Assembly (NCBI RefSeq): GCF_004353825.1
Contig: NZ_SMNA01000005.1
Coordinates: 248,001 to 312,000, forward strand
Source of the DNA: Occultella glacieicola
Lineage (GTDB): Bacteria > Actinomycetota > Actinomycetes > Actinomycetales > Beutenbergiaceae
Length of the DNA stretch: 64,000 nt
Reading direction: 5' to 3'
In this document: one piece after another, positions 1,066 through 38,700 of the stretch
Position numbering within the stretch: the first letter of the stretch is position 1
Layout of the letters: the number at the start of each line of letters is the position of its first letter
The notes under the pieces: generated by a model
What the model was told of the DNA's origin: nothing
The model's database searches: none
The model's input: only the letters and a program-made list of their open reading frames with translations
Program-made: the position numbers and the translations under genes

Positions 1066-2052
1066 TCATGACTCCTGCGCCCGGTCCGCCCGCGCCCCCG
1101 ACTGCAGGTTGAGGACGGCCCGGGCGTTGGGCTCGTCCACCACGAGCGCGTCGACGATGCCGGCGCGCAACACCCCGAGGATCGCCAGCGGCTTCTCCGG
1201 TCCGCACGCGACGGCCACGACGGCGGGGATGTTCCGCAGTTCAGTCAGCGACAACCCCATCACCCGTTCCGAGTGAGGCGCGGTGATCGCAGCACCCGCG
1301 GCGTCGAGGTAGGTCCCGAGCACGTCCCCGACCGCACCGCGCGCCCGCAGCCGCGCGATCTCGGCGGCGGACAGGCAGCCGGACCGCACCATGGTGCACT
1401 CGTCGTCGGTCCCGCCGATCCCCACGAGGGCCAGCGCCGCCGTCGCGGCGAGATCGAAGACGCCCCCGACGGCGTCCTGCCGGCGCAGTTGGTCCCGCAC
1501 CTGGCCGTCGGCCACGTAGGCGGGCGCATAGAGACTGTGCGCGGTGCCGTCGGCGGCGTCCGCGAGCACCCGGGCGATCTCGTTCGGGTTGGTCGGAGCG
1601 TCGACCGACGGCGATCCGCCCATCGCGCTGACGAACACGCACCCGGTGGCGGTGGGCTCCCGGAACGCGGCGGCCAGCGCGGCCAGGTCTCGCCCGTGCC
1701 CGACAGCCACCCGCTGCCCGTCCGCCAGGCGCCGCTCCAGGTACCGGGCCGCGCTGCGGCCCACCAGCGCGCGCTGCTCGGCCGGCTCCGCGGCGGCGGG
1801 CGCCACGATCGCGTGGCGGAGCCCGAAGACCTCGGCGAGGCGGTCCTCGAGGCCGAGGTCGAGCCCGCGCGGGGTGTCGATGTGGATGTCGACGACGCCG
1901 GTGGCCCGGGCCCGCTCGAGCAGCCGGCCGACCTTGGGCCGGGACAGCGCGAACTCCTCGGCGATCTGCTCCTGGGTGCGGGCGTCCACATAGGACCGGT
2001 GCGCGATCCGGGCGAGCAGTTCGTGCTCGTCAGGATTCAGTCCCACGGGCAT
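1066..2052 (-). CDS. SorC/DeoR-family sugar-binding transcriptional regulator
   Basis: N-terminal HTH (TQEQIAEEFALSRPKVGRLLERAR) plus sugar-binding domain (ALVGIG, GAVGDV, EKPLAILGVLR, LVVDE). Confidence 0.92.
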   Translation of the reverse strand: MPVGLNPDEHELLARIAHRSYVDARTQEQIAEEFALSRPKVGRLLERARATGVVDIHIDTPRGLDLGLEDRLAEVFGLRHAIVAPAAAEPAEQRALVGRSAARYLERRLADGQRVAVGHGRDLAALAAAFREPTATGCVFVSAMGGSPSVDAPTNPNEIARVLADAADGTAHSLYAPAYVADGQVRDQLRRQDAVGGVFDLAATAALALVGIGGTDDECTMVRSGCLSAAEIARLRARGAVGDVLGTYLDAAGAAITAPHSERVMGLSLTELRNIPAVVAVACGPEKPLAILGVLRAGIVDALVVDEPNARAVLNLQSGARADRAQES

Positions 2053-2068
2053 GGCCGACTCCGAAACC

Positions 2069-2108
2069 TGAGCATCCGCTCACCACTGAGCGGATGCTCG
2101 CCACGGTA
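2069..2108 (-). promoter_or_regulatory. Tandem palindromic operator and probable -10 of the SorC-type operon
   Basis: GAGCATCCGCTCA-ccac-TGAGCGGATGCTC perfect 13-bp inverted repeat (2070-2099); each arm is itself TGAGC-N4-GCTC(A/G). TACCGT on the minus strand at 2103-2108. Could also act as a hairpin terminator. Confidence 0.6.
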
Positions 2109-2235
2109 GCAGCGCGCGAACCGGATCGGAAGGGGCGCACTGACGCTGAACTCAATGCAGAAGATCGACGATGCGCTCCGTGTCGCGCTGGCCCTCCGTG
2201 TTGGCCGGAGCAGCGGGCGATCTGGCCGGGAGGCA

Positions 2236-4314
2236 TCAGTACGGGAAGCGACCCCCGCCCTGGCCGAGCCCGGTACCGCCGTCGGGCAGTAGGGCGGCCG
2301 CCGGGTCGGAGGCGAGCGCGGCACCGGAGTCCACGACGGTCGGCGCTTCGAACGTCGCCACCCCTTCCTCGGGGACCAGCCGCAGCCGCGGGGTCGGCCG
2401 CGGCGCCCCCTTCGCCACGGCGTCGTCGGCGGTCCAGTCGTCGACTAGAGTGAGCAGCTCATCGACCAGGTGGTTGATCCGATTCCGCTGCCCGGCACCC
2501 GGCTGGTAGGAGGGCAGCGGCGCCTCGGCGCCGGAGCCGGCCAGGTCGGCGTAGTCCGTGGCGCCCGGAACCGGCGTCCGGTAGCCGGTCCCCCATGCGC
2601 CCAGCCAACCGTGCAGGCCGGTGGTCGAAGTTCGCATCCGGATCCACCGATGGTTCTCGAACCCGTAGCCGGGCGTGACACCGGGATCCTCGCCAGCGAA
2701 CTGGTCCACGAGTTTCACCGCGCCGGCCCGGCCGCGGGCGGCGAGGGCGTCGACGATCTCCTTGGGCATGGCCAGGTTCATCCCGCCCTCGGCACCGGAG
2801 TGGTAGATGGTGACCACCCGGTCCCGGTAGCCGGGCAGGACCAGTTGGGCGTTGTCGACCCACACCTGGGAGGTGGTCACCAGGGCGTGCGCGAACCCGA
2901 GCAGTCCGGGCAGGCCCCTCGGCGTGAGCGAGTGCCAGTGGCGCAGCGCGCCGACGGCGTTGTGGGTGGGCAGGAACGTGTTCTTGGCCGGGTCCGGGTC
3001 GGGGGCCCGGCCCTCGGCGAGCTGGCCGAGGTTGATCGCGAACGTGGGCCGCTTCGGCAGCGGGCTGTCGAAGAAGTGCACGGGCAGGTTCGCGCACAGT
3101 CCGCCGTCGGAGAACCAGTTCGGTTCGAACTGCGGCAGCGCGACAAGCGCGGCGAGCGCCTCCTCGACATCCGCGTCCGGGTGCCCACCCAGCCACGCCT
3201 CGGCCTCTTTGCGGTACCGGGCGTTCTCGGCCCGGCTGAAGTCGATCGCCTCCAGCGGTACCGCCGAGATCAGCACCGGGAAGCTCAGGCTCATCCGGGT
3301 CGCGACCACGATCGGGACGTCCGCCGGCGCCGGGAACGGAACCAGCCCGCGGCGCCGCGCACAGGCGTGGGTGAGCTCGGTGTACCGGTCCCGGACCGTG
3401 CCGCCGGTGACGGTGGGCGGGTGCGCCTCGATCCAGGCGACCACATCGTCCGGGAAGTAGCGCCGCCACAGCGCCGGGTCCAGGTAGTACCCGCGGGCCT
3501 CCCACGGCATCGACATCGGCTGGTACCGGGTCACGTTCGTGGTCATCATCCGCAGCGTGATCCCGGCGGCGGCGAGCTGCCCGAACGTCACCGGTCCCGC
3601 GCCGGAGCCACCGGCAGCGCCGGAGCCACCGGCAGCGCTGGCAGCGCCGGACCCGCGGCGCCCGGCCATCGTCTGGATCCGCTCGTGCAGCCACGGGGTC
3701 AGCGCGGGCGCATTGCGGCCCCCGTACCCGGCCATCCCGGTGCACATCCCCCACCCCTGCAGCCGGCCGAGCAGCCCGCCGGCGGCGATGACGAGACCGA
3801 ACACGGCACCGAGCAGGGCCAGGACCACCCCGGCGAGCACCCCGGCCCACCGGCCACCGCCGCCGCCGGAGATGCCGGCGACCACCGCGAGCACCGCGCC
3901 CGGCAGGGCGCCGAGCACCAACGCCCACCAGAACCAACGCAACGTTGCGAACACCTTCGCACGCACCGCCGTCGACCCCTTCGAGCCCATCCCGGCGGTG
4001 GCGACCCCGAACAGCGGGGCCGCCGCCCGGGTCGGCTGGAACAGCCGGAACAGGGTGGACCCACCGGCGGGCGACGGTGCGGTGATGTCGTCCGGCATCC
4101 GCTCCAGCTCGGCGAACCCGCCGCTCGCGCGACCGAGTTCGGCGGCGGCGGCCGCGGCGGCGGCAATCGCCCCGGCGGAGGCGCCACCGACCGACCGCAG
4201 CCGGTAGGTGCGGGCCAGTTCGGTGACCGCCCGCGGGTAGATCACCCCGGAGGTGATCCCGCCCTTCATCACGAGGTCACACTCCAGTTTCGGGTCCGAC
4301 CAGTCCTGACTCAC
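2236..4314 (-). CDS. Patatin-like phospholipase with inserted transmembrane hairpin (about 692 aa)
   Basis: MKGGITSG glycine loop, GASAG nucleophile elbow, FSDGG catalytic Asp motif; two hydrophobic helices at about 3760-3940. GTG start at 4314 with CAGGAGG RBS; the ORF-track start at 4449 overlaps the HNH gene. Confidence 0.88.
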   Translation of the reverse strand: MSQDWSDPKLECDLVMKGGITSGVIYPRAVTELARTYRLRSVGGASAGAIAAAAAAAAELGRASGGFAELERMPDDITAPSPAGGSTLFRLFQPTRAAAPLFGVATAGMGSKGSTAVRAKVFATLRWFWWALVLGALPGAVLAVVAGISGGGGGRWAGVLAGVVLALLGAVFGLVIAAGGLLGRLQGWGMCTGMAGYGGRNAPALTPWLHERIQTMAGRRGSGAASAAGGSGAAGGSGAGPVTFGQLAAAGITLRMMTTNVTRYQPMSMPWEARGYYLDPALWRRYFPDDVVAWIEAHPPTVTGGTVRDRYTELTHACARRRGLVPFPAPADVPIVVATRMSLSFPVLISAVPLEAIDFSRAENARYRKEAEAWLGGHPDADVEEALAALVALPQFEPNWFSDGGLCANLPVHFFDSPLPKRPTFAINLGQLAEGRAPDPDPAKNTFLPTHNAVGALRHWHSLTPRGLPGLLGFAHALVTTSQVWVDNAQLVLPGYRDRVVTIYHSGAEGGMNLAMPKEIVDALAARGRAGAVKLVDQFAGEDPGVTPGYGFENHRWIRMRTSTTGLHGWLGAWGTGYRTPVPGATDYADLAGSGAEAPLPSYQPGAGQRNRINHLVDELLTLVDDWTADDAVAKGAPRPTPRLRLVPEEGVATFEAPTVVDSGAALASDPAAALLPDGGTGLGQGGGRFPY
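3601..3650. repeat. Short 18-bp tandem repeat encoding a (GGSGAA)n linker in the patatin
   Basis: gccggagccaccggcagc x2 plus a degenerate third copy. Confidence 0.7.
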
Positions 4315-4336
4315 GACGACCTCCTGGGGTGGGGGC

Positions 4337-5191
4337 TCAGTCCGGCGGGAACAGCCGGTCGTAGTAGGCGGCGACCACCTGCTTGGCCATCGCCGTGTAG
4401 GGCGCGTCGTCCGCGACGAACGTGGCGACGTCGGCCACGCCTCGCGCAAACTGGTCCCGCAGGTCCTGATCGTCCGGATGCCGCCCGATCGCCTCCTTCA
4501 GGAAGGCCAGGCTCTCCAGGTGACCGCGCAGCGCACGCACCACCCGCCGTCGGGTCTCGACCAGCCCACGCCGCTGCAGCGCGCACACGGCGATGGTGGT
4601 CTCCCCCTTGCGGCTCGTCCGCCCGGAGGCGTACCGGTGCGGGAGCACCCACCCCTCGTCGATGCCGGTGGTCTGCCACACGAAGTCGAGGTGCTTCTCG
4701 GGGAAGTCGAGGTAGGGATGCAGGAGCAGCCGCTCCTCCCGCGCCTCCTGCCCCGGTGCGGTGGCCCGGTCGGCCTCGTCACCGATCGGGAACGCGTTCG
4801 CCTTGCCCGCGGTCGCCCGGACGCCGGGCAGGTCCTGCCCCCGGGGGCTGTTGCAGTCCGTGCAGGAGGGCAGCAGGTTGTCCCACTGCGACGCGAGCCA
4901 GTAGTAGCCGGGCGGGGTGCGCACACCGTCGATGGTCACCTCACCCTTGGGCCGGTAGTGCTCGACGGCGACCGGCTGGGTCGCGAGGTAGGAGGACTCG
5001 CAGTAGGCGCACTTGAAGCCGAAGGCCGCCTCGAGGGCGTCCTTCACGTCCGGCGCCTTGTAGATGGCGTACTTGTTGTACTTGTCCACGCCGTTCCAGG
5101 TCGCATAGAACGCGGCCGCGCGGGTGCGTTCGCGCACGGCGCGGTCGGAGGACAACGTGGCCGGCTCGGGCGGGCGCGGCACCCGTCTCAT
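4337..5191 (-). CDS. HNH endonuclease, Septu PtuB / retron-associated HNH type (284 aa)
   Basis: KCAYCES...VEHYRPKG...YYWLASQWDNLLPSCTDCN: two CxxC pairs and an intact H-N-N core. ATG at 5191 overlaps the upstream stop (ATGA). Confidence 0.88.
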   Translation of the reverse strand: MRRVPRPPEPATLSSDRAVRERTRAAAFYATWNGVDKYNKYAIYKAPDVKDALEAAFGFKCAYCESSYLATQPVAVEHYRPKGEVTIDGVRTPPGYYWLASQWDNLLPSCTDCNSPRGQDLPGVRATAGKANAFPIGDEADRATAPGQEAREERLLLHPYLDFPEKHLDFVWQTTGIDEGWVLPHRYASGRTSRKGETTIAVCALQRRGLVETRRRVVRALRGHLESLAFLKEAIGRHPDDQDLRDQFARGVADVATFVADDAPYTAMAKQVVAAYYDRLFPPD

Positions 5192-7206
5192 CGCTTCGCC
5201 CCCGACGCCCGAGACGTCGCAGCCGCCCCCGCGGCCCCGGGCAGTCGCGCGGTCCACAGGGCCGCGAGGTCCTCGGTGACTTCCGCGGAGGTGCGCTCGA
5301 CGGCGTCCCCGACCTGACGCCGTCGGGCGATGAACTCGTCGGCGGCGGCGAGCAGCAGGCGGTCCCGCTCGGTGGTGCCGAGCACCCCGATCTCGTCGAG
5401 GCGGGCACGGACCCGGTCCAGCTCGGCCCGCTGGTCGGCGGACCGGCGGGTCAGTCCCTGGAGCCGGTAGTAGGTCGCCCACAGGTCGTCGAGCTCGGGG
5501 TCGTCGGTGCTGCCCAGGCCGAAGTGTTCGGAGGTGAGCAGCTGGTCCACCCGCATGCCCTGCACCGAGGGCAGGTCCGTGATCGCGATGACGTCGGCCT
5601 CGGCGTTGCGGCGGATCACGGTGACCTCGCCGTCGAGCAGGCCGCGCAGGCACAGCGGGTCGTGGGTGGACACGATGAACTGGACCCTCGGCATCAGGAC
5701 GCGCAGCGCGGTCACGATCCGCATCCGCCAGCGTGGGTGCAGGTGCGCACCGAGCTCGTCGATGAGCACGATCCCCTCCGCCAGCTCCACCCGGTCCCAG
5801 CGGGTCAGGACGGTGCGCAGCACGTCGCAGGCCAGCACCAGCATCGACTGGTAGCCGTCGCTGAGCTCGGTCAGCTCGGCGACGGAGTTCAGCTGGTGGA
5901 TCCGCACCACCCGGCGCCGGCGGTCCGCCTCGATGCGGGCGGTCTCGGAGAGCGCAAGCAGGTCCACGAGGCCCTCGGTGACGTCGGCGAACACCGGTTC
6001 CGTCAGGGACAACAGCCAGTGGGTGGGGTCGGTGAGCGGGCGGAACGGGTCGAACAGGTTGTCCACCCAGGCGCTCGCGTGGTCGGTGCGCTCGGGGACC
6101 GGCTCCCGGGGCAGCAGCCGGGTCGCGCCGTAGCCGAGGAGCAGCACCGGGGCGGCCTCGGGCCCGGTGAACTCGGTGTCCCCGGTGCGCCAGGAGAGTT
6201 CGAGCGGGCGCGCCTCCCCGGTGAGGTAGACCTGCACCCGGCCCACCCGCGCGCGGTGGCGCAGGTAGGCGCCGGCGTCCATGGCGAGCTCGCGTCGGTA
6301 GGCGCCGCCGATGAGGGTGAGCGCGATCGCGTGCAGGATCGAGGACTTGCCGCACCCGTTCTCCCCGAGCAGCACGGTCCACGGACCCTCCTGGCTCGTC
6401 GACTTGGAGAAGTCCAGGTCCAGATCCCGGATCGGCCGGAAGTTCTCGATGACCACCCGGTCGATCCACTTCGCCGCGCCGTAGTAGCTCGGCGCCTGGG
6501 TGGGCGCGAGCGGGAGGTTCAGGTCGTAGCTCGGCCGGGGCAACGCGACTGCGGGGGTGTGCCCGACACCGCGTTCGGTCATCGACGGGAACACCGCTGC
6601 GGCCGGGGCCGGTCCGCCCGGCGCGCCTGCGCCGGCCGGCGTCGGAGTGGCCCCGATCTGCCGGGCGCGCCGCTGCACGAGGGCCGACCGGTTCAGCGCC
6701 AGCACCTCGATGGTGACCCGCCCGCGTTCGCTGGCGCCGGCCACGGTGCCGTCGGTCTGGTAGAGGAGGTGGGCGCCGAGGTCCTCCCGGCCCGGGTCCA
6801 GGAGCAGCGCGTCCTCGCTCGCCCACGGTTCATCGGCGTCGGAACGGGCGCCGCGGACCGGGAACCGGCTGCCCTTGGCCCGCACGCAGTCCACGCAGGC
6901 GGGCAGCAGGTTCGTCCAGGTGTATTCCAGCCACCGGTAGTGGCCCGGGCTCACCGACCCGTCCTCGCCGACGGCGTTGCCGGGCGGGCGGTGGTGCGTC
7001 ACAACCGCGGTGGTCACCTCGAGCGGGGACTCGCAGTAGGCGCAGCGGTCGCCGGTCATCTCCAGGAGGCGCTCGATGATCGCCTGCGGCGCCGGCCCGG
7101 GGGCGATCTTGGTGGCCGCCGCCTCGTGCTCGCGCGATGTCAGGCCCGCGTTCTGCGAGCGGGCGCGGGCGAGTTCCTCGGGTTCTGCTGGGCGCACGAG
7201 TCGCAT
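5188..7206 (-). CDS. N-terminal HNH-like domain fused to an ABC/AAA_21-type ATPase (Septu PtuA-like), 672 aa
   Basis: N-terminus RCAYCES...THHRPPG...WTNLLPACVDC. C-terminus IENFRPI, Walker A GENGCGKS, signature LSDGYQS, Walker B IVLIDE, HLHPRW, H-loop STHDP and a DQLLTSEHFGL tail. GGAGG RBS. Confidence 0.88.
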   Translation of the reverse strand: MRLVRPAEPEELARARSQNAGLTSREHEAAATKIAPGPAPQAIIERLLEMTGDRCAYCESPLEVTTAVVTHHRPPGNAVGEDGSVSPGHYRWLEYTWTNLLPACVDCVRAKGSRFPVRGARSDADEPWASEDALLLDPGREDLGAHLLYQTDGTVAGASERGRVTIEVLALNRSALVQRRARQIGATPTPAGAGAPGGPAPAAAVFPSMTERGVGHTPAVALPRPSYDLNLPLAPTQAPSYYGAAKWIDRVVIENFRPIRDLDLDFSKSTSQEGPWTVLLGENGCGKSSILHAIALTLIGGAYRRELAMDAGAYLRHRARVGRVQVYLTGEARPLELSWRTGDTEFTGPEAAPVLLLGYGATRLLPREPVPERTDHASAWVDNLFDPFRPLTDPTHWLLSLTEPVFADVTEGLVDLLALSETARIEADRRRRVVRIHQLNSVAELTELSDGYQSMLVLACDVLRTVLTRWDRVELAEGIVLIDELGAHLHPRWRMRIVTALRVLMPRVQFIVSTHDPLCLRGLLDGEVTVIRRNAEADVIAITDLPSVQGMRVDQLLTSEHFGLGSTDDPELDDLWATYYRLQGLTRRSADQRAELDRVRARLDEIGVLGTTERDRLLLAAADEFIARRRQVGDAVERTSAEVTEDLAALWTARLPGAAGAAATSRASGAKR

Positions 7207-7312
7207 GGGACCTCCGCCGACCGGTGGGCGACATCATCCCACCGGGCGGGTGGCTCCGGTGGGCGTTTGCCAGCGAAGAGGCGGCCGCGAGGGCCGTGAT
7301 ACGGCAGGCGGG

Positions 7313-7552
7313 TCAGGACCGGCTGATGTTCGGCAGTGCGGCGAGCGCGGTGTCCCCGGCGGCGTCGCGGTGCAGCATCGGCACGATCACCCAGCCGGGT
7401 CCGGCGCCACCGGGCCCGGTGACGTGGGCGGACTCGTCATCTGGGGTGGTCCAGTCGGATCGTCGCCATTCGGTCACCACGGCGTCGGCGACATCCCCCA
7501 GCTTCATCACGTGGTCGAGATCGCACACCCACGCACACGCTGTCTCACCCAT
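7313..7552 (-). CDS. Small hypothetical protein (79 aa), co-oriented upstream of the HNH-ATPase operon
   Basis: ATG preceded by GGGGAG; no recognisable domain. Confidence 0.4.
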   Translation of the reverse strand: MGETACAWVCDLDHVMKLGDVADAVVTEWRRSDWTTPDDESAHVTGPGGAGPGWVIVPMLHRDAAGDTALAALPNISRS

Positions 7553-7662
7553 GTGCCCACTCCCCGATTCGATCCAATTCGTTCCCTTGAGCGCTCTTCA
7601 CGCTAGTCCGGGATGTGATACAGAGCACTAGTGGGATCGGGTGATCTTGGGGCTGGACGCTC

Positions 7663-7698
7663 CTCACCCCGGGGTGAGCTCGGGGTGAGGTCTCACCC
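7663..7698. promoter_or_regulatory. Array of four GGGTGAG heptamers (probable regulator binding site)
   Basis: Perfect 16-bp palindrome CTCACCCCGGGGTGAG (7663-7678) followed by GGGTGAG-gt-CTCACCC (7683-7698), in the divergent intergenic region. Confidence 0.5.
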
Positions 7699-7795
7699 TC
7701 CTCCAACCGGATCGGCGGACTCGCCACCGGCGGGCCCCTTCCCTGGCACGATCACTGGTGGCCGAGGCGACGGACGAGGACGGGAGCACTCGATC

Positions 7796-9028
7796 GTGAA
7801 GGTGCTGGTGGTGGGTGCGGGGATCCTCGGGCTGGCGACGGCGGCGCGCCTGGCCCGTCGCGGCGACGAGGTGGTGGTCGTGGACAAGGAGCCCGGGGTG
7901 GCGCACCACCAGACCGGCCACAACTCCGGGGTGATCCATTCCGGTCTGTACTACGCGCCGGGCAGCCTGAAGGCGCGGCTGGGGACCGCGGGCGCGGCCA
8001 GCATGACGGCGTTCGCGCAGGACCACGGCGTGCCGGTGCGGACCTGCGGGAAGCTGGTGGTCGCCGTCGATGACGCCGAGCTGCCCGCCCTGGCCGAACT
8101 GGCCCGGCGGGCCGAGGCGAACGGGGTGCCGGCGCGGCTGATCGACGCCGCCGAGGCCCGTGAGTACGAGCCGAACGTCTCCTGCGTGCGGGCGCTGCGG
8201 GTGGAGAGCACCGGCATCGTGGACTACGTGGGCGTGTGCGAGGTGCTGGCCGGGCAGATCGCCGACGGCGGAGGGCAGGTCCGTTTCGGCCGCACTTTCC
8301 GCGGTGCCCGCACCGTGGGCGGGCGCGTGCGCGCCCGGGTGGACGTGCTGGGCGCCGACGGCGCCGCGACGGACACGGGCCGCGAGGACGTCGTCGCCGA
8401 TGCGCTGGTGGTCTGCGGCGGACTGCACGCCGACCGGCTCGCCGACGCCTGCGATGTGGTGCCGCAGGCCCGGATCGTGCCGTTCCGCGGTGAGTACTTC
8501 GAGCTGGCCCCGGCCAAGACGGACCTGGTCCGCACCCTGATCTATCCGGTGCCAGACCCCCGGTTCCCGTTCCTGGGCGTGCACCTGACCACGATGATCG
8601 GCGGCGGCGTGCACGCCGGCCCGAACGCGGTGCTGGCCCTGGCCCGGGAGGGTTACACCTGGCGGGACGTGAATCTGGCCGACCTGCGCGGCTCGCTGTC
8701 CTGGCCCGGCCTGTGGCACCTCGGGCGCCGCAACCTCGTGCCCGGGGCGAACGAGGTCATCCGGTCCCTGTCCCGGACCCGGTTCGCGGCCAGCCTGTCC
8801 CGGCTGGTCCCGGGCATCACGGCCGCGGACCTAGTGCCGGCTCCGGCCGGGGTGCGGGCCCAGGCGCTGCGCCGGGACGGGTCCCTCGTGGACGACTTCC
8901 TGATCCAGCGGTCCGACCGCCAGCTCCACGTGCTGAACGCTCCTTCGCCGGCGGCGACGGCGTCCCTGGAGATCGCGGCCCACCTCGAGTCGGAACTGGA
9001 CGCGATGCTCGCCGCCGAGGCACGCTGA
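7796..9028 (+). CDS. lhgO: L-2-hydroxyglutarate oxidase
   Basis: GAGILG FAD motif, [68 protein letters not shown] start at 7796 after GGGAG. Confidence 0.92.
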
Positions 9029-16966: not shown

Positions 16967-17335
16967 GTGACGACGACCGACACCACACCGGCAACGACCG
17001 GCGCCGACTGCTGCACGCCTGCGGTCGCACAGGCCCTCGCCCCTGAGGTCGCCCGTGGCGTTGCGCGGGCGTTCAAGGCCCTGTCCGATCCGGCTCGCGT
17101 GCAACTCCTGGCGATCATCGCCGCACAGCCCGACGGCGAGGCTTGCGTGTGCGACCTCACCGAACCGGTGGCACTCACCCAGCCGACCGTCAGTCATCAC
17201 CTCAAGATCCTCGTCGAGGCGGGACTTCTGGCCCGGGAACAGCGGGGCCGCTGGGCCTACTACACGATCCAGCCCACCGCCCTGACCCGGTTGGCCGCCG
17301 GCCTCGCGGGCACCGGGAGCACCGCGGCGCCATAG
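16967..17335 (+). CDS. arsR: ArsR/SmtB-family metalloregulator
   Basis: N-terminal CC, FKALSDPARVQL, EACVCDL, QPTVSHHLKIL, EQRGRWAYY; GTG start at 16967. Confidence 0.9.
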   Translation: MTTTDTTPATTGADCCTPAVAQALAPEVARGVARAFKALSDPARVQLLAIIAAQPDGEACVCDLTEPVALTQPTVSHHLKILVEAGLLAREQRGRWAYYTIQPTALTRLAAGLAGTGSTAAP

Positions 17336-17366
17336 CCGTGGCGACCGTGACGGCGAGCGGGGCGGG

Positions 17367-18923
17367 TCAGTGTCCCGCGCCGAGGTTGCCGGAGAGCCTG
17401 GTGTGGCGGCTGGCACTGTCGGGATTCATGCCCACGATGGTGACGCTCTTGCCCTTGGTCTCGTACTTGTGGGTGATGGCGTCGAGGGACGCTACGGTCG
17501 AGGCGTCCCAGATGTGCGCGCGGGTCATGTCGATGACGATGTTCTGCGGGTCCCCGGTGTAGTCGAACTGGTAGACGAGGTCGTTGGACGAGGCGAAGAA
17601 CAACTCGCCCTCGACGGCGTAGACCCGTTCATTGTCCTGGTCGCTGGCGTCCAGGCGGGTGACCGAGGTGACGTGCGCGACGCGCCTGGCGAAGAGCACC
17701 ATGGCGACGAGAACCCCGGCAAGCACGCCGTAGGCGAGGTTATGGGTCGCGACGGTGATGACGACGGTCGCGAGCATCACGGCCAGTTCGGACTTGGGCA
17801 TCCGGCGAAGGGTCGCAGGGTGGATCGAGTGCCAGTCGAAGGTGCCGACCGAGACCATGATCATCACCGCGACGAGCGCGGCCATGGGAATGGTCGCGAC
17901 GACGTCGCCCAAACCCACCACAAGGACCAGCAGGAACGCTCCGGCCAGGAAGGTGGAGATCCGGGTGCGCGCGCCGGAGGCCTTCACATTGATCATCGTC
18001 TGGCCGATCATCGCGCAACCGCCCATGCCGCCGAGGAAGCCGGTGATGATGTTGGCTGCCCCTTGGCCCCACGCTTCCCGCGTCTTGTTCGAGTGGGTGT
18101 CCGTGATGTCGTCCACCAGTTTGGCGGTGAGCAGCGACTCGAGGATCCCGACCAGTGCCATCGCCAGCGCGAACGGGGCGATGATCTGCAGGGTCTCCAG
18201 CGTCAGCGGCACGTTCGGGAACAACAGTGACGGGAGAGAGTCGGGCAACGCGCCCTCGTCGCCGACGGTCGGGATGTCGTTCAAGCCGGCCAGCACGACG
18301 GCCGCCGTCAGCAGCACGATCGCCACCAGCGGGGCCGGGACCACCTTGGTCCAACGGGGCAGCAGCACCATGATCACGATGCCGACGGCCACCAGTGGAT
18401 ACACGAGCCACGGCACGCCGGTCAGGTGCGGAATCTGTGACAAGAAGATCAGAATGGCGAGGGCGTTGACGAAGCCGACCATCACCATGCGCGGGATGAA
18501 CCGCATGAGTTTGGCGACACCGAGCACGCCCAAGGCCACCTGGAACACTCCGCCCAGGATCACGGTGGCGATGAGGTAGTCGAGGCCGTACCGCTGCATC
18601 ACGGGCGCGATGACCAGAGCGATGGCACCGGTGGCCGCGGAGATCATCGCCGGGCGACCGCCCAGGAACGAGATCGAGACGGCCATGGTGAACGCGGCGA
18701 ACAGTCCCACCCGAGGGTCCACACCGGCGATGATCGAGAACGCGATGGCCTCCGGGATCAGCGCCAGGGCGACCACGAGGCCGGCCAACACCTCGGTCCT
18801 GAGGCGCCGTGGCGAGCGCAGCGCAGCGCGGACGGAGAACGTCTCGCCCGCTTCCGGTGTCATGACGGCGGCGCGACTCAAGCGACGTGGCCCAGATCCA
18901 GCGGGTCGCGACTCGTTCGACAT
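17367..18923 (-). CDS. SulP-family inorganic anion transporter with STAS domain
   Basis: LALIPEAIAFS, GGRPAMISAATGA, GMGGCAMIGQT, GELFFAS. Start uncertain (ATG at 18923 or 18863). Confidence 0.92.
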   Translation of the reverse strand: MSNESRPAGSGPRRLSRAAVMTPEAGETFSVRAALRSPRRLRTEVLAGLVVALALIPEAIAFSIIAGVDPRVGLFAAFTMAVSISFLGGRPAMISAATGAIALVIAPVMQRYGLDYLIATVILGGVFQVALGVLGVAKLMRFIPRMVMVGFVNALAILIFLSQIPHLTGVPWLVYPLVAVGIVIMVLLPRWTKVVPAPLVAIVLLTAAVVLAGLNDIPTVGDEGALPDSLPSLLFPNVPLTLETLQIIAPFALAMALVGILESLLTAKLVDDITDTHSNKTREAWGQGAANIITGFLGGMGGCAMIGQTMINVKASGARTRISTFLAGAFLLVLVVGLGDVVATIPMAALVAVMIMVSVGTFDWHSIHPATLRRMPKSELAVMLATVVITVATHNLAYGVLAGVLVAMVLFARRVAHVTSVTRLDASDQDNERVYAVEGELFFASSNDLVYQFDYTGDPQNIVIDMTRAHIWDASTVASLDAITHKYETKGKSVTIVGMNPDSASRHTRLSGNLGAGH

Positions 18924-19057
18924 GCGGGGAATCCGATCAGGTGTGCGGTGGGGCGTGGGGGACTCAGCCGTGACATCGGACCCGCCATCGGAGTTCGAAT
19001 CGTCGGCCTGTGCTGACGTCGCTGGGAGCGGACAGGGGAGCAATAGCGCGACGGATG

Positions 19058-19087
19058 AAACCCTACCCTAACGTAAGGGTAGAGTTT
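19058..19087. promoter_or_regulatory. Probable MerR-type operator
   Basis: AAACcCTACCCT-AACGTA-AGGGTAGaGTTT dyad between the divergent sulP and merR-family genes. Confidence 0.7.
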
Positions 19088-19110
19088 CTGACTGTCTGAG
19101 AGACTGGACC

Positions 19111-19536
19111 ATGCGCACTCCGCAGCAGCCGACGCCGCACGGCGTGGGCGTCGGCGCGCCGCCGGCTGATGCTGAGGCTACGCAGCACATCGGAGCCGTG
19201 GCCGAACGTACCGGTCTGTCCCTGCGAACGCTTCGCCACTACGACGACGTCGGGCTCCTGCGACCCTCGGCACGATCCGAGGGCGGGTACCGCCTCTACA
19301 CCGACAGCGATGTTGAGCGGATCCTGCTGATCAAACGCATGAAGCCGCTCGGCTTCACCCTTGACGAGATGGCCGACCTGCTCGACGCCGTCGCCACCTT
19401 GGACATCGATGCCGAGGACGCCACGGCCAGAGCCAAGGTCGCGGACTACACCCGTTCCGCGGAAGAGCGACGGCACAAGCTTGCACGCACCCTGGACATG
19501 GCGGACGAGTTCATCGCCCTGCTCCGCGCCACCTGA
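19111..19536 (+). CDS. MerR-family transcriptional regulator
   Basis: IGAVAERTGLSLRTLRHYDDVGLLRPSARSEGGYRLY...MKPLGFTLDEM. Confidence 0.92.
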   Translation: MRTPQQPTPHGVGVGAPPADAEATQHIGAVAERTGLSLRTLRHYDDVGLLRPSARSEGGYRLYTDSDVERILLIKRMKPLGFTLDEMADLLDAVATLDIDAEDATARAKVADYTRSAEERRHKLARTLDMADEFIALLRAT

Positions 19537-19676
19537 GTTCCGTCGGGTCGCTGAGCGGTCGTTCCACAGGCGGAACATCCCGCAACGATCGACGGACCGG
19601 GAGGATCGTCGACCGACCGCGGAACCGGGAGCCCCGAGGCGCCTTGCGGCCGCTTCCCGACAACCGCTTGCAGGTC

Positions 19677-19712
19677 ATATCGACGTATGTCAACATAGAC
19701 ACATGCCGATAT
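19677..19712 (+). promoter_or_regulatory. Tandem probable ArsR operators upstream of trx-acr3-arsC
   Basis: ATCGA-CGTATG-TCAAC followed by ATAGA-CACATG-CCGAT. Confidence 0.6.
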
Positions 19713-19755
19713 AAGCCCGGTGGCACCTCACGTGCCCGGCTGTGGAGGAGATCCG

Positions 19756-20085
19756 ATGAGCACGAACACCGTCTCGGTGACCGATGAGACCTTCGCGGAG
19801 GTCGTCCTGGGCTCCCAGGTGCCTGTGCTCGTGGACTTCTGGGCGGCGTGGTGCGGCCCGTGCCGGCAGGTCGCTCCGATCCTGGAGTCGCTTGGCGCCG
19901 AGTACGCCGGTCGGCTGGTCATCGCCAAGCTTGACGCCGACGCGAACCCCAAGTCCCTGGCCGACGCAGGGGTGGTGTCCATTCCGACCCTGAACTTCTA
20001 CGCCGACGGTCAGTTGATGAAGTCGGTGGTGGGAGCACGCCCCAAGAATGCGCTGATCACCGAGATCGAGGAGATCCTGGCGTGA
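19756..20085 (+). CDS. trxA: Thioredoxin
   Basis: VDFWAAWCGPC, SIPTL; ATG at 19756 with GGAGGAG RBS. Confidence 0.93.
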   Translation: MSTNTVSVTDETFAEVVLGSQVPVLVDFWAAWCGPCRQVAPILESLGAEYAGRLVIAKLDADANPKSLADAGVVSIPTLNFYADGQLMKSVVGARPKNALITEIEEILA

Positions 20086-21206
20086 GCGAGACCATGCTGG
20101 CTCCGGTCACGCAACGCACGCAGGCCCGCCGGCTCTCCACGCTCGACCGGTGGCTGCCCGCGTGGATCGGGCTGGCCATGGTCGCCGGCCTGGTCCTGGG
20201 CCGGTTCGTGCCGGGCCTTGCCGACGTGCTGACGGCGCTGGAGGTCGGTGGGATGTCCGTCCCGATCGGGCTTGGCCTGCTGGTCATGATGTACCCGGTA
20301 CTGGCCAAGGTCCGCTATGACAAGGTCGGCGCAGTCACCGGTGACACGAGGCTGCTGGTCAGTTCGCTGGCGCTGAACTGGCTGCTCGGCCCCGCGCTGA
20401 TGTTCGCCCTGGCCTGGACGCTGTTGCCGGATCTGCCGGAGTACCGGACCGGGCTGATCATCGTGGGTCTGGCCCGGTGCATCGCGATGGTCGTGATCTG
20501 GAACGACCTCGCCTGCGGTGACAGGGAGGCGGCCGCCGTTCTCGTGGCGATCAACTCCGTGTTCCAGGTCATCGCGTTCTCCCTCCTCGGCTACTTCTAC
20601 CTGACGGTGCTACCCGGCTGGCTCGGCCTGGACACCCAGGGCTTGGACGTGTCCGTGGGACAGATCGCGCTCAACGTCCTGGTCTTCCTCGGGCTACCGC
20701 TCCTGGCCGGGTTCGCGTCCCGCTGGCTCGGTGAACGCACGAGGGGACGCCATTGGTACGAAGCCCGGTTCGTCCCCCGGATCGGTCCGTGGGCTCTGTA
20801 CGGCCTACTGTTCACGATCGTGCTGCTGTTCGCCCTCCAGGGCGAGGCCGTGACCTCCAACCCGCTGGACGTGGCCCGCATCGCGCTGCCCCTGCTGGTC
20901 TACTTCGCGCTCATGTGGGGCATCGGGATCGTGCTCGGGAAGGCACTGGGCCTGGGCTATGCCCGCTCCAGCACGCTCGCGTTCACCGCGGCCGGCAACA
21001 ACTTCGAGCTCGCGATCGCCGTGGCGATCGGCACCTTCGGGGCAGCGTCCGGACAGGCACTCGCCGGGGTGGTCGGCCCCCTGATCGAGGTCCCGGTCCT
21101 GGTCGGCCTCGTCTACGTCTCGCTCTGGCTCTCTCGCCGCCTGTTCCACACCGACCCCGACGGTCTGCGCGGCAGCACGCCACCTATGGAAGGGGCACAA
21201 CCATGA
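20082..21206 (+). CDS. acr3: ACR3-family arsenite efflux transporter
   Basis: LSTLDRWL, MMYPVLAKV, GLARCIAMV, AAGNNFELAIAV, GPLIEVPVL. Confidence 0.95.
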   Translation: MSETMLAPVTQRTQARRLSTLDRWLPAWIGLAMVAGLVLGRFVPGLADVLTALEVGGMSVPIGLGLLVMMYPVLAKVRYDKVGAVTGDTRLLVSSLALNWLLGPALMFALAWTLLPDLPEYRTGLIIVGLARCIAMVVIWNDLACGDREAAAVLVAINSVFQVIAFSLLGYFYLTVLPGWLGLDTQGLDVSVGQIALNVLVFLGLPLLAGFASRWLGERTRGRHWYEARFVPRIGPWALYGLLFTIVLLFALQGEAVTSNPLDVARIALPLLVYFALMWGIGIVLGKALGLGYARSSTLAFTAAGNNFELAIAVAIGTFGAASGQALAGVVGPLIEVPVLVGLVYVSLWLSRRLFHTDPDGLRGSTPPMEGAQP

Positions 21207-22225
21207 CCACCTCCGACGACGTGCGGCCCATGTCCGACGTGACCGACCCGGATTGCACCCCGCAGACCGAGTCCCATGCGATTGCCACCGAGGCCGCCAC
21301 CACGGTGGCCACCACGCTGAAGGCACTTGCCGAACCGCTCCGGTTGCGGATGCTGTCCTTCATCGCCACCGCCCCGACCGGCGAGGCCTGCGTGTGCGAC
21401 CTCGCCGCCCTGACCGACGTCTCCCAGCCGACCGTCTCCCACCACCTGAAAGTCCTACGTGAGGTGGGGATCCTCACCTCCGAACGGCGCGGCACCTGGG
21501 TCTGGTATCGCATCGAACCCGGCTACCGCGGCGCGGTCGCGACACTGCTGGACTCCTTCGCACCGGCCGCCCTCGAGGCACCACACCGTCGGCAGGCACT
21601 CGGTGGCCTGCAGGCCGTCGATCCGGTGCTCGATCGCATGGCCACCGAACTTGCGCCCTCCTTCCCCGGCGTTCACGTCGACGTGGTGCAGCGGATCGTC
21701 CGCGAGTCCTACACCGGCCTCGCCCGCACCGCGAAGGTGTCTGCGCACCTGATCTCGCTCGCCGAGCGGTTCGCTCGGCAGCGGCTCACCGACACCACCC
21801 GGGAGGCCACAACCTCGGTCCCGCAGGTGCTGTTCGTCTGTGTCGCGAACGCCGGTCGCTCCCAACTCGCCGCGGCCCTGATGCACCGCTACGCGGGCGA
21901 CCGCGTCACCGTCCGTTCTGCCGGTTCCACCCCCGCCGCCGACGTCCACACCGGGGTCCGTGAGGCCCTGGCCAACCTCGGCACCACCGACGCCTACCCC
22001 AAGCCCCTCACCGATGACGCCGTCCGCGCGGCCGATGTCGTGATCACGATGGGCTGCGGTGATGTCTGCCCGATCCTGCCCGGCATCCGCTATGAGGACT
22101 GGCTGGTGGGCGACCCCGCGCTGGCCTCACCCGCCGGCATCGCCGCGATCCGCGCCGACCTCGACACCCGCGTCCGGGGTCTCCTCGCCGACCTGCTGCC
22201 CGACCTCACGCTGCCCACCACCTGA
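21203..22225 (+). CDS. ArsR regulator fused via a helical linker to an LMW-PTP arsenate reductase domain
   Basis: EACVCDL...SQPTVSHHLK (ArsR); SYTGLARTAKV...AERFARQRL (helical bundle); FVCVANAGRSQ and ITMGCGDVC (ArsC). ATG at 21203. Confidence 0.88.
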   Translation: MTTSDDVRPMSDVTDPDCTPQTESHAIATEAATTVATTLKALAEPLRLRMLSFIATAPTGEACVCDLAALTDVSQPTVSHHLKVLREVGILTSERRGTWVWYRIEPGYRGAVATLLDSFAPAALEAPHRRQALGGLQAVDPVLDRMATELAPSFPGVHVDVVQRIVRESYTGLARTAKVSAHLISLAERFARQRLTDTTREATTSVPQVLFVCVANAGRSQLAAALMHRYAGDRVTVRSAGSTPAADVHTGVREALANLGTTDAYPKPLTDDAVRAADVVITMGCGDVCPILPGIRYEDWLVGDPALASPAGIAAIRADLDTRVRGLLADLLPDLTLPTT

Positions 22226-22243
22226 GCCATTGGAGCCAACGTC

Positions 22244-22675
22244 ATGACCACCACCCCCCAGGCGTCCGCACTGTTCGTGTGTGTCCACAACGCCGGCCGC
22301 TCGCAGATGGCCGCCGGGTTCCTGCGCACCCTCTCCGGCGGGCGAGTCGACGTCCGCTCCGCCGGGTCCACGCCCGCCGACCAGGTCAACCCGGTCGCCG
22401 TCCAGGCGATGGCCGAGGTCGGCATCGACATCGGCGCCGAACAGCCCAAGGTCCTGACGACCGACGCCGTGCGGGCCTCGGACGTCGTCATCACCATGGG
22501 CTGCGGCGACGCCTGCCCCATCTTCCCTGGCAAGCGCTACGAGGACTGGACCCTCGAGGACCCGGCCGGGCAGGGCATCGAATCCGTCCGCGAGATCCGC
22601 GATGAGATCCGAGCGCGAGTGCTGACACTGCTCGACGAACTGGGAGTCAACCCTGACGCTCCCGGCCGTCAGTAG
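22244..22675 (+). CDS. arsC: Arsenate reductase (LMW-PTP fold, thioredoxin-coupled type)
   Basis: FVCVHNAGRSQMA, ITMGCGDACP, DWTLEDPAG. Confidence 0.93.
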   Translation: MTTTPQASALFVCVHNAGRSQMAAGFLRTLSGGRVDVRSAGSTPADQVNPVAVQAMAEVGIDIGAEQPKVLTTDAVRASDVVITMGCGDACPIFPGKRYEDWTLEDPAGQGIESVREIRDEIRARVLTLLDELGVNPDAPGRQ

Positions 22676-26365: not shown

Positions 26366-27006
26366 CTGGCAAGAACCCACAGACCCCACCTGCGCCGCTC
26401 ACCGCAGACCCCGCCGATTTCACCACCCACACCGACCCGCTGTGGAGGATCCACCGCACCACCGGCGCGTATCGGCAACGCTGGGACGAGATGCGCACCG
26501 TCGGCCCCCTCGTCCAGATGCGATGGGACCCACACCACCCAGCTGGTCCAGGGCCGGTGCGGGCGGTGACGTACACCGCCACCGATGTGCTCACAGCGTT
26601 CGGGGAGGCGTTCCAGACGCGGCGCCGGATCGTGCTGTCCGAGCACCAGTCGCTCGTCTCATGGGTGCCTTCCCGCCCGCTTCGGCTGCTGAGTCTGCTG
26701 CCCCCGACGACCCCGACCGGGACGCCCTGGGCGCTGCGCAACGGTGCGTCAGCATCGCTGGACTCCGCCCCGAAATCGACGTGCCGTGCGTGGGCGCGGT
26801 CGATCGCAGAGACCTGGCCTGATCTCGACGGTATCCACGTGCGTTCGCCCGTCACCGGACAGCCCATGGTCACGCTGTTCGCACCCGCCGCCACCACCTA
26901 CCCCGTTGACCCGGCCTACTCCCGCCGGCTCGATGACTCTGCGGTCGCCGCCATCGCCGTCCATGTCGCCATCGCCCTCAACTGGACCCCACCGGTCAGA
27001 GGCTGA
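26362..27006 (+). CDS. RES-domain toxin (NAD+ phosphorylase family)
   Basis: LWRIHR, RWDPH, YTATDVLTAFGE, DLDGIHVRS (R-E-S residues). Confidence 0.8.
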   Translation: MTGKNPQTPPAPLTADPADFTTHTDPLWRIHRTTGAYRQRWDEMRTVGPLVQMRWDPHHPAGPGPVRAVTYTATDVLTAFGEAFQTRRRIVLSEHQSLVSWVPSRPLRLLSLLPPTTPTGTPWALRNGASASLDSAPKSTCRAWARSIAETWPDLDGIHVRSPVTGQPMVTLFAPAATTYPVDPAYSRRLDDSAVAAIAVHVAIALNWTPPVRG

Positions 27007-35755: not shown

Positions 35756-38700
35756 TCAGGACCAGTGCGGCGGGACGTCGCGACGGAGCCGTTCGTCGTC
35801 GGAGTCCGACGAGCCTTCCCCCCAGGCGCGGTCCTCGTCCTCCCAGGCCCGGTTCGGGATCGTCGGCTCGGCTCGCCCGGCCGTGCCGGTTCGGGGCGCG
35901 TCCGGGTGCGCGTCGGTGGATCCGGCGTCGGCGCCGCCATCGCCCTGCGTGTCGTCGGCAGGCTCCTCGCCGGCAGCCTGGGCGTCGCCGGCGAGCTCAT
36001 CGTCGGCGGCCTCGGCGTTGCCGACGGGCTCATCGTCGGCGGCCTCGGCGTCGCCGGCGAGCTCATCGTCGGCGGCCTCGGCGTCGCCGGCGAGCTCATT
36101 GCCGGCAGCCTCGGCGTTGCCCGCGAGCTCATCGTCGGCGGCCGCGGCGGCCTCCGCCGGGGGCGAGCCGTCCGCCCCGGTGACGTCGCCGCCGTCGGCC
36201 TCCCCGGCCGCTCGCGTTGCGTCGGTGGCGGCCGGGGAGTCCGGAGCGGACCCGAGCCCCGAGCGCCGCACCGCGGCGCCGAGAACGGCGTCCACGTGGG
36301 TGCCGCGCTTGGCGATGCCCAGCTCGGCGCGGAGTTCCTCGCGCAACGCCTCGCTCGAGCGGGGCTCGCCGTCCGAGGCGAGCCACCCGACCAGGGCGTC
36401 GAGTTCGTCGTCGCCGTACCGGCTCAGCGGCTGTCCCGGCGGCACGTCGGGCCGGTCCCCGCGCAGTCCGGCGATCGGGGACCTGGTGCCGGGCCGGGTC
36501 GGCTGCTCACCGACCATGGCGATGCCGCGGGCGGACGTCGTGGGACGGGCCGCGGAATCACGGTCCGGTTCCTCCTCCCCGGCGACCTCGTCCACGAGAT
36601 CCGTGGGCGGGATCCCGGACGCCGGGCTCGTGACCGTCACGTTCCGCTCGGCGAGCACGGCCCGCACGTCCTGCGCGATCCGTTCCGCCTCGCCCTGCGG
36701 ATCCATGAACACCGCCGTGGAGAAGACCATCCGGACCCGCCATCCGCGGTTCTGCAGCCGTTGCACCCAGTGCCGGTCACGCCGTCGCAGGCTCGGTTCG
36801 GCGACGTACTCCGGGTCGTCGGTGAGGACCGCGACCAGCAGCTCCCCCGGCAGGTCCGGGTGCCCGATCGCGAGCGGGATGCGTACGCCCCCGGGCACGC
36901 CGTAGCGGGGCACCACGGTGAGGCCGAGGCGCCAGAGCCGCTCGGCGAGGTCGACGAGCAGTCGATCGGGGGCGTGATCGTCGGTGTCCTCGTCGAGTTC
37001 GGCCCGGCCGGCCGCGGCGAGGGCGAGCACGTCCTTGAGCATCCTGGACCCCTCGGACCGCAGCCGTGCCGGGTCCAGGTCCTCGGCTGCGAGGCAGCTG
37101 ACCACGGTGAACCGGTGCCGCACCGCGTCGAGCGCGTCCACGAGGTACTCGGCCCCGTCGCGTCCGGAGACGGCCCCGAACCGGTGCAGCACCCGCCCGT
37201 GCGGCGTCTTGCCGTAGCCGAGGCTGAAGATGATCGCGTCCCGGCGCAGGCCGGCGACCGACTCGATGTCGACGACGGTGAACGCGTCCGTGCCGGACTG
37301 GTCGAAGAACGCGGACATCGCGGTGCTGCCGGCCGCCGTGGAGAGCACCGCCTCACGGACCCGGTCCGCATGCCGGCTGTTCAGTGCGATCACGGCGAGG
37401 GACTGTTCCGGCCGGGTCAGTGCGTGGTCGATGACGAGGTCGACGACGCGGTCCACCTCGGCCTGCACGCTCTCGACCACGTCCGAGCCCGGAGCCGGCA
37501 TCCCGGTGCCGTCGACCAGGTCCAGGGTGATCCGAGGGCTGTGCGGCGGGGCCGGCACCGGCCGGATGATGTCCGCATAGCCGTGCCGGGCGAGGAACGC
37601 GGCGATGTCGGTGTCCTGGTCCACCCGGTCCCCGGGCAGCGTTGCCCGCGGCAGGAGGTCCAGGGCCCGGACGGTCCCGGTGCCGCCACGGCGGGTGTCG
37701 CCGAAGACGACCACCTGCTTCGCCCGGACGATCGCGGAGATCACCTGCTCCACGGGCAGGTGCTGCACGGCGTCGAGCACGAGCAGGTCCACGTCACGGC
37801 CGGGCGGGAGCACCTGCGGCACCACCATCGGTGGCACGATCCACACCGGCCGGGGTGCCCAGGCCACCTCGCCGAACCGGTTCAGCAGGGCCTTGAGGTC
37901 GGTGGCCCCACGCATCACCGTGCGGTAGAACTCCTGCGCGCGGGGACGGTCGGCGGAGATCGCGGCGCGCACCCGGGCGGCCGATCCGGCCAGCACCGGT
38001 GCGACCAGGCTCGCGGTCTGGGTCTCGTCCAGAGCCCGCAGCCGCGCGGCCGCCTCGTCCAGGGACTCCGCCTCGAGGCCGGCCATGGCCGGGTCCTCGG
38101 CGAGCATCTCCTCCAGCACACTCGACCACCAGGCGAGGTCGAACTCCGCGCCCACGAGGCTCGTCGGAACCCGCCGCTGGCCCAGGTCGGCCACCAGCGG
38201 CGCGAGACCGAGGCCGTTGAGCTTCGCGATCACCGCGGCCCGCTCCGGCATCTGCCGGACCGCCGCGTCGTCGGTACCCAACCGTTCGATGCGGTTGGCG
38301 AGTTCGGCCAGCGGCACCTCGGACAGGGTACGGCCACCCAGGGTGGGGGCCAGCACGGGCGCGAGTCGGCCGACGAGGTCGGTGACCTCCTGCGCCGTCC
38401 GGACGATCGCCGTCATCCCCTCGGGAACCCGCGGCCAGCCGCCCCCGGCGCAGTGCCGACGCCAGACGTCGCGGCGGGTGGCGACCTCGACCAGTTCCGC
38501 GTGCAGATCACCGACCGTGACCCCGGGTCGGAGCAGGTCCTTGGCCTGCTTGCGCAGCCGGCGCCGGGCACCCCAGGCGAGGTCGACCTGGTGCTGCGCT
38601 CGCCAGGCGCGGCTGGCGGTGGCGGCGACCATGTCCGTGGCCGACCGCTCGAACACCTGCGGCGTGAAGACGTCCAGGGAGGACTGGATCCCGTCGAGCA

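Follow-up and report, generated by a model that had tools for sequence, protein, structure and literature searches.

We analysed a block of three minus-strand genes in a 64,000-nucleotide stretch of the Occultella glacieicola genome (contig NZ_SMNA01000005.1, positions 248,001 to 312,000; this whole stretch is called the window in the following). The block encodes a PtuA-type ATPase with a fused HNH domain (672 aa, 7206-5188), a PtuB HNH nuclease (284 aa, 5191-4337) and a patatin (692 aa, 4314-2236). By the identity of their parts, genes one and two constitute an anti-phage system of Septu type I, and the trio is one instance of a wider, optional pairing of Septu with lipase-type genes. We assign a probability of roughly 0.45 to the reading that such loci represent a distinct Septu type I subfamily, i.e., one with a dead PtuB copy on PtuA and an exchangeable lipid hydrolase that would trigger the nuclease via ATP loss. 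That lipase and Septu are functionally coupled at all, in either direction, is probable.

The Septu pair and its fused HNH domain

The ATPase matches the PADLOC model PtuA1 PDLC00292 (E 7.7e-190) and the HNH protein the PtuB1 model PDLC00328 (E 8.2e-66, over residues 1-280), which bears out the Septu ancestry suggested by the original prediction for this locus, a note made from the DNA letters alone. The 672-aa protein also scores above the cut-off of Pfam AAA_21 and is matched by solved PtuA chains at E values of 5e-18 to 1e-15, and the solved retron PtuB matches the 284-aa protein at E 0.002. All ATPase motifs are intact, i.e., Walker A (G281-S288), the signature LSDG (448-451), Walker B up to D483/E484 and H515, with G281, N283, K287, D483 and H515 invariant in 89/89 ATPase homologues. 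This also holds for the PtuB motifs CxxC, EH, N and CxxCN, where E77, H78, N105 and N114 are kept in all 26 stand-alone PtuB homologues. That is, an intact ATPase of the Septu model is adjoined downstream by an HNH protein with its catalytic His, as is characteristic of Septu type I. The Septu type I system of PDB entries 8EE4/8EE7/8EEA likewise shows PtuA-then-PtuB order, translational coupling, PADLOC model matches and intact catalytic motifs; it differs in that the window carries a dead PtuB copy on PtuA and a third, lipase-type gene. Septu type I is known as an ATP-inhibited PtuA6B2 nuclease complex with anti-phage function, an assembly and function that would be expected of the window pair.

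Retron type I-A (Septu type II; Ec78, Ec83) also holds a PtuA/PtuB effector under the control of an added module, according to the excerpts consulted of 10.1101/2025.05.10.653283 and PMC12640716. It has, however, a reverse transcriptase, and none was found in the window locus or its genome. RVT_1 gave no match in this genome, which is 100% complete (retron non-coding RNA was not searched for), and the NCBIfam retron models of PtuA and PtuB score far below their cut-offs (103.7 vs 500 and 50.7 vs 150), such that retron type I-A membership was rejected. CBASS membership was rejected as well, given that SMODS, the one CD-NTase family tested, has no match in the same genome, the flanks are metabolic and the patatin matches no CBASS effector model. 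The earlier view that the block is neither a retron nor CBASS thus stands.

The fused pseudo-HNH domain (6652..7089, minus strand) comprises about residues 40-185 of PtuA and is followed by a Pro/Ala linker and the ATPase. The PADLOC PtuB1 model PDLC00339 matches residues 41-184, and residues 40-217 of PtuB align to residues 42-192 of the fused protein. Its four Cys, RP and first Asn are kept; the acid before the catalytic His is replaced by Thr (T-H), and the metal-ligand Asn by Val (CxxCV). The domain is also without the C-terminal helices of PtuB, by which PtuB docks on PtuA (10.1101/2025.05.10.653283, consulted in excerpt). Judged from its residues, the fused HNH goes back to a duplication of PtuB, with the catalytic residues gone in the window protein, and it appears to be a folded, non-catalytic module. 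An extra active nuclease on the ATPase was rejected, since T-H and CxxCV replace the catalytic residues and the module is a degenerate PtuB copy.

All 159 fused domains compared have the four Cys and the Arg, and almost all (158/159) the Pro and the first Asn. Of the catalytic set, the His is found in 85 and the last Asn in 77 of these domains; the full set is present in 34, and it is intact in none of the fused domains from the aligned loci. Purifying selection on the fused domain persists (dN/dS 0.24-0.31). The dead HNH, its zinc fold kept, probably serves in sensing nucleic acids or phage proteins or as a scaffold.

The fusion itself had been taken for undescribed, which did not hold. The three best PtuA1 models (PDLC00292/288/291) span 726-773 positions, and their first part matches PtuB; since the models cover both domains, the HNH-ATPase fusion belongs to a Septu subfamily that is already catalogued. 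It is also a large one, i.e., the best 150 of 1,156 representatives (E <1e-30) are nearly all 600-800 aa long. In the literature searched (subscription papers and supplements lay outside the search), we found neither a description of an HNH-fused PtuA nor a link between PtuA/PtuB and a patatin. In L121:6358-8488, L140:5018-7314 and L112:6700-8831, the gene of the fused ATPase is either disrupted or divided into separate frames for HNH and ATPase, and PtuB and the partner gene remain whole there.

Patatin and other lipase-type partners

The third gene encodes an intact membrane patatin, predicted from its intact motifs to be a lipid acyl hydrolase: the GG oxyanion (G18, G19), GASAG (S46) and DGG (D403-G405) are all present, with G18, G19, S46, D403, G404 and G405 invariant in 116/116 aligned homologues. 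Hydropathy indicates a two-helix membrane hairpin at about 131-177, inserted in the catalytic domain. The structure model (predicted local distance difference test, pLDDT, 89.7) matches only patatin folds at E <0.05, among them VipD, CapE and CapV; a single-sequence fold was discarded (pLDDT 41.9). Pfam Patatin reaches 25.7 bits, just under the cut-off of 27.7, the PADLOC and NCBIfam families gave 0 matches at E 0.1, and a PDB sequence search with the patatin gave nothing meaningful. With CapV/CapE of CBASS, the window patatin has the fold and the Ser-Asp dyad in common, but it is about twice as long, carries the inserted hairpin, shares 10-12% identity and has no PADLOC match; moreover, CBASS has a CD-NTase. 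A complex prediction of patatin residues 1-655 with the dead HNH (1-190) scored 0.00 and was taken neither for nor against.

The patatin family is large (4,235 matches among 8,000 scored), and some database records name homologues 'RpoH suppressor'. The SuhR/'RpoH suppressor' name stems from Rhizobium meliloti, where it denotes a gene with a suppressor effect on an rpoH mutant of E. coli; we found no paper on this origin, and the literature searched held no defence link for this family. Two longer patatin forms were found, neither with an HNH or AAA_21 domain; the long homologues P0274 and P0275 are fused to NTPase or beta-propeller/TIR-type domains in precomputed Pfam assignments.

A Septu pair lies within 8 kb in 7 of 80 patatin loci (several of the 80 on short contigs), i.e., in two same-genus, two Rhodobacter, two Shinella and one Steroidobacteraceae locus. 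Since the fused subfamily is rare (3/300 Hyphomicrobiales, 0/397 Actinomycetales outside the genus, about 1% of sampled genomes), chance does not account for the adjacency at 5/78 patatin loci from beyond the genus. Using the ATPase only as query, we found that in the two closest of five metagenome loci (L111, L112) the patatin immediately follows PtuB, either 1 bp behind it or overlapping it by ATGA; the remaining three contigs are short. The same arrangement is found in 8/33 fused-PtuA plasmid records, all from Rhizobium, and a second query revealed two Paracoccus plasmid records with the trio, such that the trio is present in 10/22 patatin-bearing plasmid records. Rhodobacter loci L063 and L134 hold the trio too, and the patatin comes first in Shinella, in the Steroidobacteraceae genome (a gammaproteobacterium) and in L276. 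In both gene orders, the joined trio genes either overlap or lie 1 to about 33 bp apart.

Among the neighbours of solitary patatins, 4/135 match PADLOC, all of them housekeeping-like (two loci without gene call excluded), for which reason we rejected the patatin as a general defence-island gene. PtuA/PtuB is the only recurrent non-housekeeping neighbour across phyla. Scored by homologue neighbourhoods, the linkage assumed in the original prediction thus recurs in distant lineages far beyond chance. Approximately unbiased (AU) tests reject a single clade for the linked patatins (p 3e-50) as well as for the linked ATPases (p 4e-5), which implies that the pairing was gained or lost repeatedly, two histories that look alike in these trees. 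On the same grounds, we rejected descent of the trio as a single ancient and fixed unit. Within the alphaproteobacterial group, both trees largely agree. Many trio loci sit among housekeeping genes, and several Rhizobium loci in crowded islands.

On viral contigs, two patatin loci lie in the tail regions of prophages, where the scanned neighbours include neither an ATPase nor an HNH gene, and two fused Septu pairs have no lipase; the other 78/80 rows are unfused or unrelated ATPases. One patatin homologue closes the tail cluster of a prophage, behind a Dam-type methylase (L145/L146:5992-8088). In gammaproteobacterial loci (L068, L074, L080, L081), a GDSL-like hydrolase precedes solitary patatins, and the one in L080 is related to the GDSL gene that adjoins the Septu pair of L114.

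Other lipase-type genes adjoin the fused pair as well. Tle1/DUF2235 phospholipase genes do so at L129:10827-11993, L157:6828-7958, L159:3204-4244 and L277:4651-5844, with stand-alone Tle1/DUF2235 beside fused Septu occurring in Alphaproteobacteria and Bacteroidota. A further, unnamed family of about 480 aa is alpha/beta-hydrolase-like, with HG and AHSLG motifs, a membrane hairpin and no Pfam family above cut-off. It is found at L153:6780-8213, L142:3488-5008, L266, L278, L279 and L280, in broken form in L158 and three genes from the pair in L144. A Septu pair is also present in 8/9 plasmid records with this hydrolase (several of them near-identical plasmids). In the records analysed, members of the family nearly always adjoin a fused pair; the family is a candidate new defence component. 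In a second plasmid batch, 5/13 loci have a hydrolase of one kind or another next to the pair (one a fragment of doubtful relevance, one broken). Single loci show a PLD (L140), GDSL (L114) or DUF915 gene (L138), enzymes that are perhaps recruited to the proposed lipase slot, or an amidohydrolase with no membrane segment (L141). Sister ATPases have different partners (L157 Tle1 vs L278 hydrolase; L277 with Tle1 within a patatin clade), a pattern of non-orthologous replacement. In addition, a KAP-family NTPase is found beside a fused Septu pair in a prophage (L161:8950-10794), and opposite-strand reverse transcriptase genes are found near fused pairs on two plasmids (L151:6759-7772, L142:9356-10255).

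For a prospective sample, we fixed the partner families before drawing genomes at random, 400 from Pseudomonadota and 300 from the Rhodobacter family. Here, 6/9 new fused loci abut a lipase-type partner (four alpha/beta hydrolases, one Tle1, one patatin), not counting G460 and G759, which had been seen already, and G457. Three of these partners and the patatin are co-oriented with the pair, with short gaps or overlaps. For unfused Septu loci, the respective count is 0/9, as searched in all six frames without reliance on gene calls. Fisher's test gives p 0.009 (6/9 vs 0/8, two near-identical controls merged), a value that overstates the significance since kin are not independent. Adding earlier random draws results in 7/12 fused vs 0/11 unfused loci.

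Several observations weigh against our reading. The prospective sample is small, rich in Rhodobacteraceae and composed of kin that are not independent, and 3/9 unfused controls are cut by contig ends. No Septu pair lies within 8 kb in 73/80 patatin loci, including its nearest relatives from other genera (56-64% identity), i.e., the patatin also exists independently of Septu. Conversely, 25/33 fused-PtuA plasmid records are without the patatin, 8/13 loci of the second plasmid batch show no hydrolase beside the pair, and fused pairs without any lipase neighbour are found at 3/9 loci of the prospective sample and in L130, L131, L161 and L162. At L076 (where the patatin is convergent with the pair), L129, L153, L157, L159, L279 and L280, partners are convergent or divergent and thus not co-transcribed. 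For the alpha/beta hydrolase, the one Pfam match is sub-threshold (E 0.004), and its putative lipase activity is deduced from motifs. The window locus, finally, is surrounded by metabolic genes and not part of a defence island. The trio as a fixed system, as first envisaged, is not supported: both parts are mostly found apart, and other lipase-type genes substitute for the patatin.

Locus and genus context

The gene layout is as originally described. PtuB starts on the PtuA stop by an ATGA overlap (5188-5191), and the 22-bp spacer between PtuB and patatin (4315-4336, minus strand) contains the ribosome-binding site CAGGAGG, as read in the sequence, 5 bases ahead of the patatin's GTG start codon. 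AGGAGG plus ATG is present at the aligned patatin start in 3/3 same-genus relatives, which confirms the start. Family searches also agree with the metabolic flanks noted before: on one side lie a Sugar-bind (SorC-type) regulator and a class II aldolase, on the other a DAO-family FAD oxidoreductase. Scans for sigma-70 promoter sites and, within 1900-7900, for minus-strand terminator-like sites returned none, both scans being weak in high-GC DNA.

The trio is intact at the same site with the same flanking genes in 4/4 genomes of the genus, and its closest named relatives are Occultella species. GC content and GC3 (third codon positions) of the trio are like those of the flanking genes. Within the genus, the three genes show dN/dS of 0.21-0.40, i.e., purifying selection, and their dS (0.37-0.51) is close to that of flanking housekeeping genes (0.31-0.39). 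The block is therefore old in the genus and under selection.

Just upstream of the SorC-type regulator, there is a perfect 30-bp inverted repeat (2069-2098) that is almost invariant in 4/4 genomes of the genus and is probably the operator of this regulator. Elsewhere in the window, a protein of 1,576 aa that contains a REase_MTES_1575 domain (35759-40486, minus strand) and a small RES-domain gene (26557-27003, plus strand) are possible defence or toxin-antitoxin parts. The cluster at 17099-22672, with ArsR/MerR regulators, a thioredoxin, an SBF transporter and two genes of the low-molecular-weight phosphatase family, looks like an arsenic-resistance region, with its function deduced from the families.

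Proposed mechanism and its alternatives

Stand-alone PtuAB is kept in check by ATP, and PtuB is set free once the ATP level drops, according to the excerpts of 10.1101/2025.05.10.653283 and PMC12640716. As far as the consulted part of PMC13001434 reports, Tmn sits in the membrane and switches on Septu type I by draining ATP, and the synergy disappears when PtuB is mutated, i.e., PtuB catalysis is needed. Tmn-Septu is our working model, in which a membrane protein lowers ATP such that Septu type I becomes active. Tmn is a P-loop NTPase of a separate system, whereas here the membrane component would be a lipid hydrolase within the Septu operon.

Under our reading, infection would cause the lipase to attack the inner membrane, the damage would let ATP fall, PtuA would free active PtuB upon this drop, and PtuB would cut DNA (or tRNA) such that the infected cell aborts. 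The dead HNH on PtuA might act as sensor or brake, which is a guess. The coupling is probably metabolic and not based on protein contact, because the partner folds are unrelated. Put more narrowly, and more tentatively, the fused-PtuA branch could be an undescribed Septu subtype with interchangeable lipases as the phage-triggered, ATP-collapsing step and the dead PtuB as sensor or brake.

Among the alternatives, the one that survives best, though we consider it doubtful, takes the pair as a plain two-gene Septu beside an unrelated lipid-metabolism or stress gene, brought together by shared cassettes or insertion sites with no interplay. That both parts are mostly found alone fits this, as do the patatin's own ribosome-binding site in the window, the crowded islands of several Rhizobium loci and the 'RpoH suppressor' label, which hints at a stress role. 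It has difficulty with the repeated, phylogenetically separate pairings joined by overlaps or gaps below about 33 bp, with the recurrence of the pattern for three unrelated hydrolase families against 0/9 in unfused controls, and with the settings of both genes, i.e., solitary patatins lie outside defence islands and many trio loci among housekeeping genes.

Unlikely, in our view, is a lipase that acts as second, downstream or parallel killing effector, where PtuA, maybe via the dead HNH, would hold back or switch on the patatin and infection would set off DNA cutting as well as membrane lysis. The fold match to the CBASS effectors CapV and CapE, the invariant catalytic residues and the translational coupling in several loci, with the patatin first or last in the operon, are in line with it. 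A shared protein switch is, however, hard to picture for partners with unrelated folds, of which Tle1 has no membrane hairpin; a cyclase for a CapV-type ligand is missing in the SMODS search of the own genome, and most patatins stand alone amid housekeeping genes, unlike a dedicated toxin. Of the original idea of a second, membrane-attacking effector, the attack on the membrane is thus retained as possible, but an upstream role as trigger fits known Septu regulation at least as well. Improbable is a lipase that restrains Septu, repairs afterwards or answers envelope stress rather than phage, with a lipid product as the ligand that sets PtuAB: the stable vertical inheritance with flank-like dS, unusual for a fast-turnover defence cassette, and a fatty-acid product that different lipases could share speak for it, but many fused pairs have no lipase alongside, such that the lipase is no obligatory antitoxin, and the domain search recognised no lipid-binding module in PtuA.

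The ATP-loss reading bears on how Septu is switched on during infection, which is partly understood: ATP depletion is the accepted trigger, and the cause of the ATP drop is often unclear. An operon of Septu and a membrane lipase makes this question testable in one small construct. If the link were non-functional, the locus would be an ordinary Septu next to a lipase; if our reading is true, swapping the patatin for Tle1 or an alpha/beta hydrolase would keep the function. The recurrent lipase-type neighbours suggest that defence here combines damage to the membrane with DNA cleavage. They also make two enzyme families that have yet to be characterised candidate immune components, and the dead nuclease domain a candidate regulatory module. 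If the lipases are interchangeable triggers, the trio would be a genetically hard-wired synergy of defence systems, and the solitary 'RpoH suppressor' patatins would gain a function.

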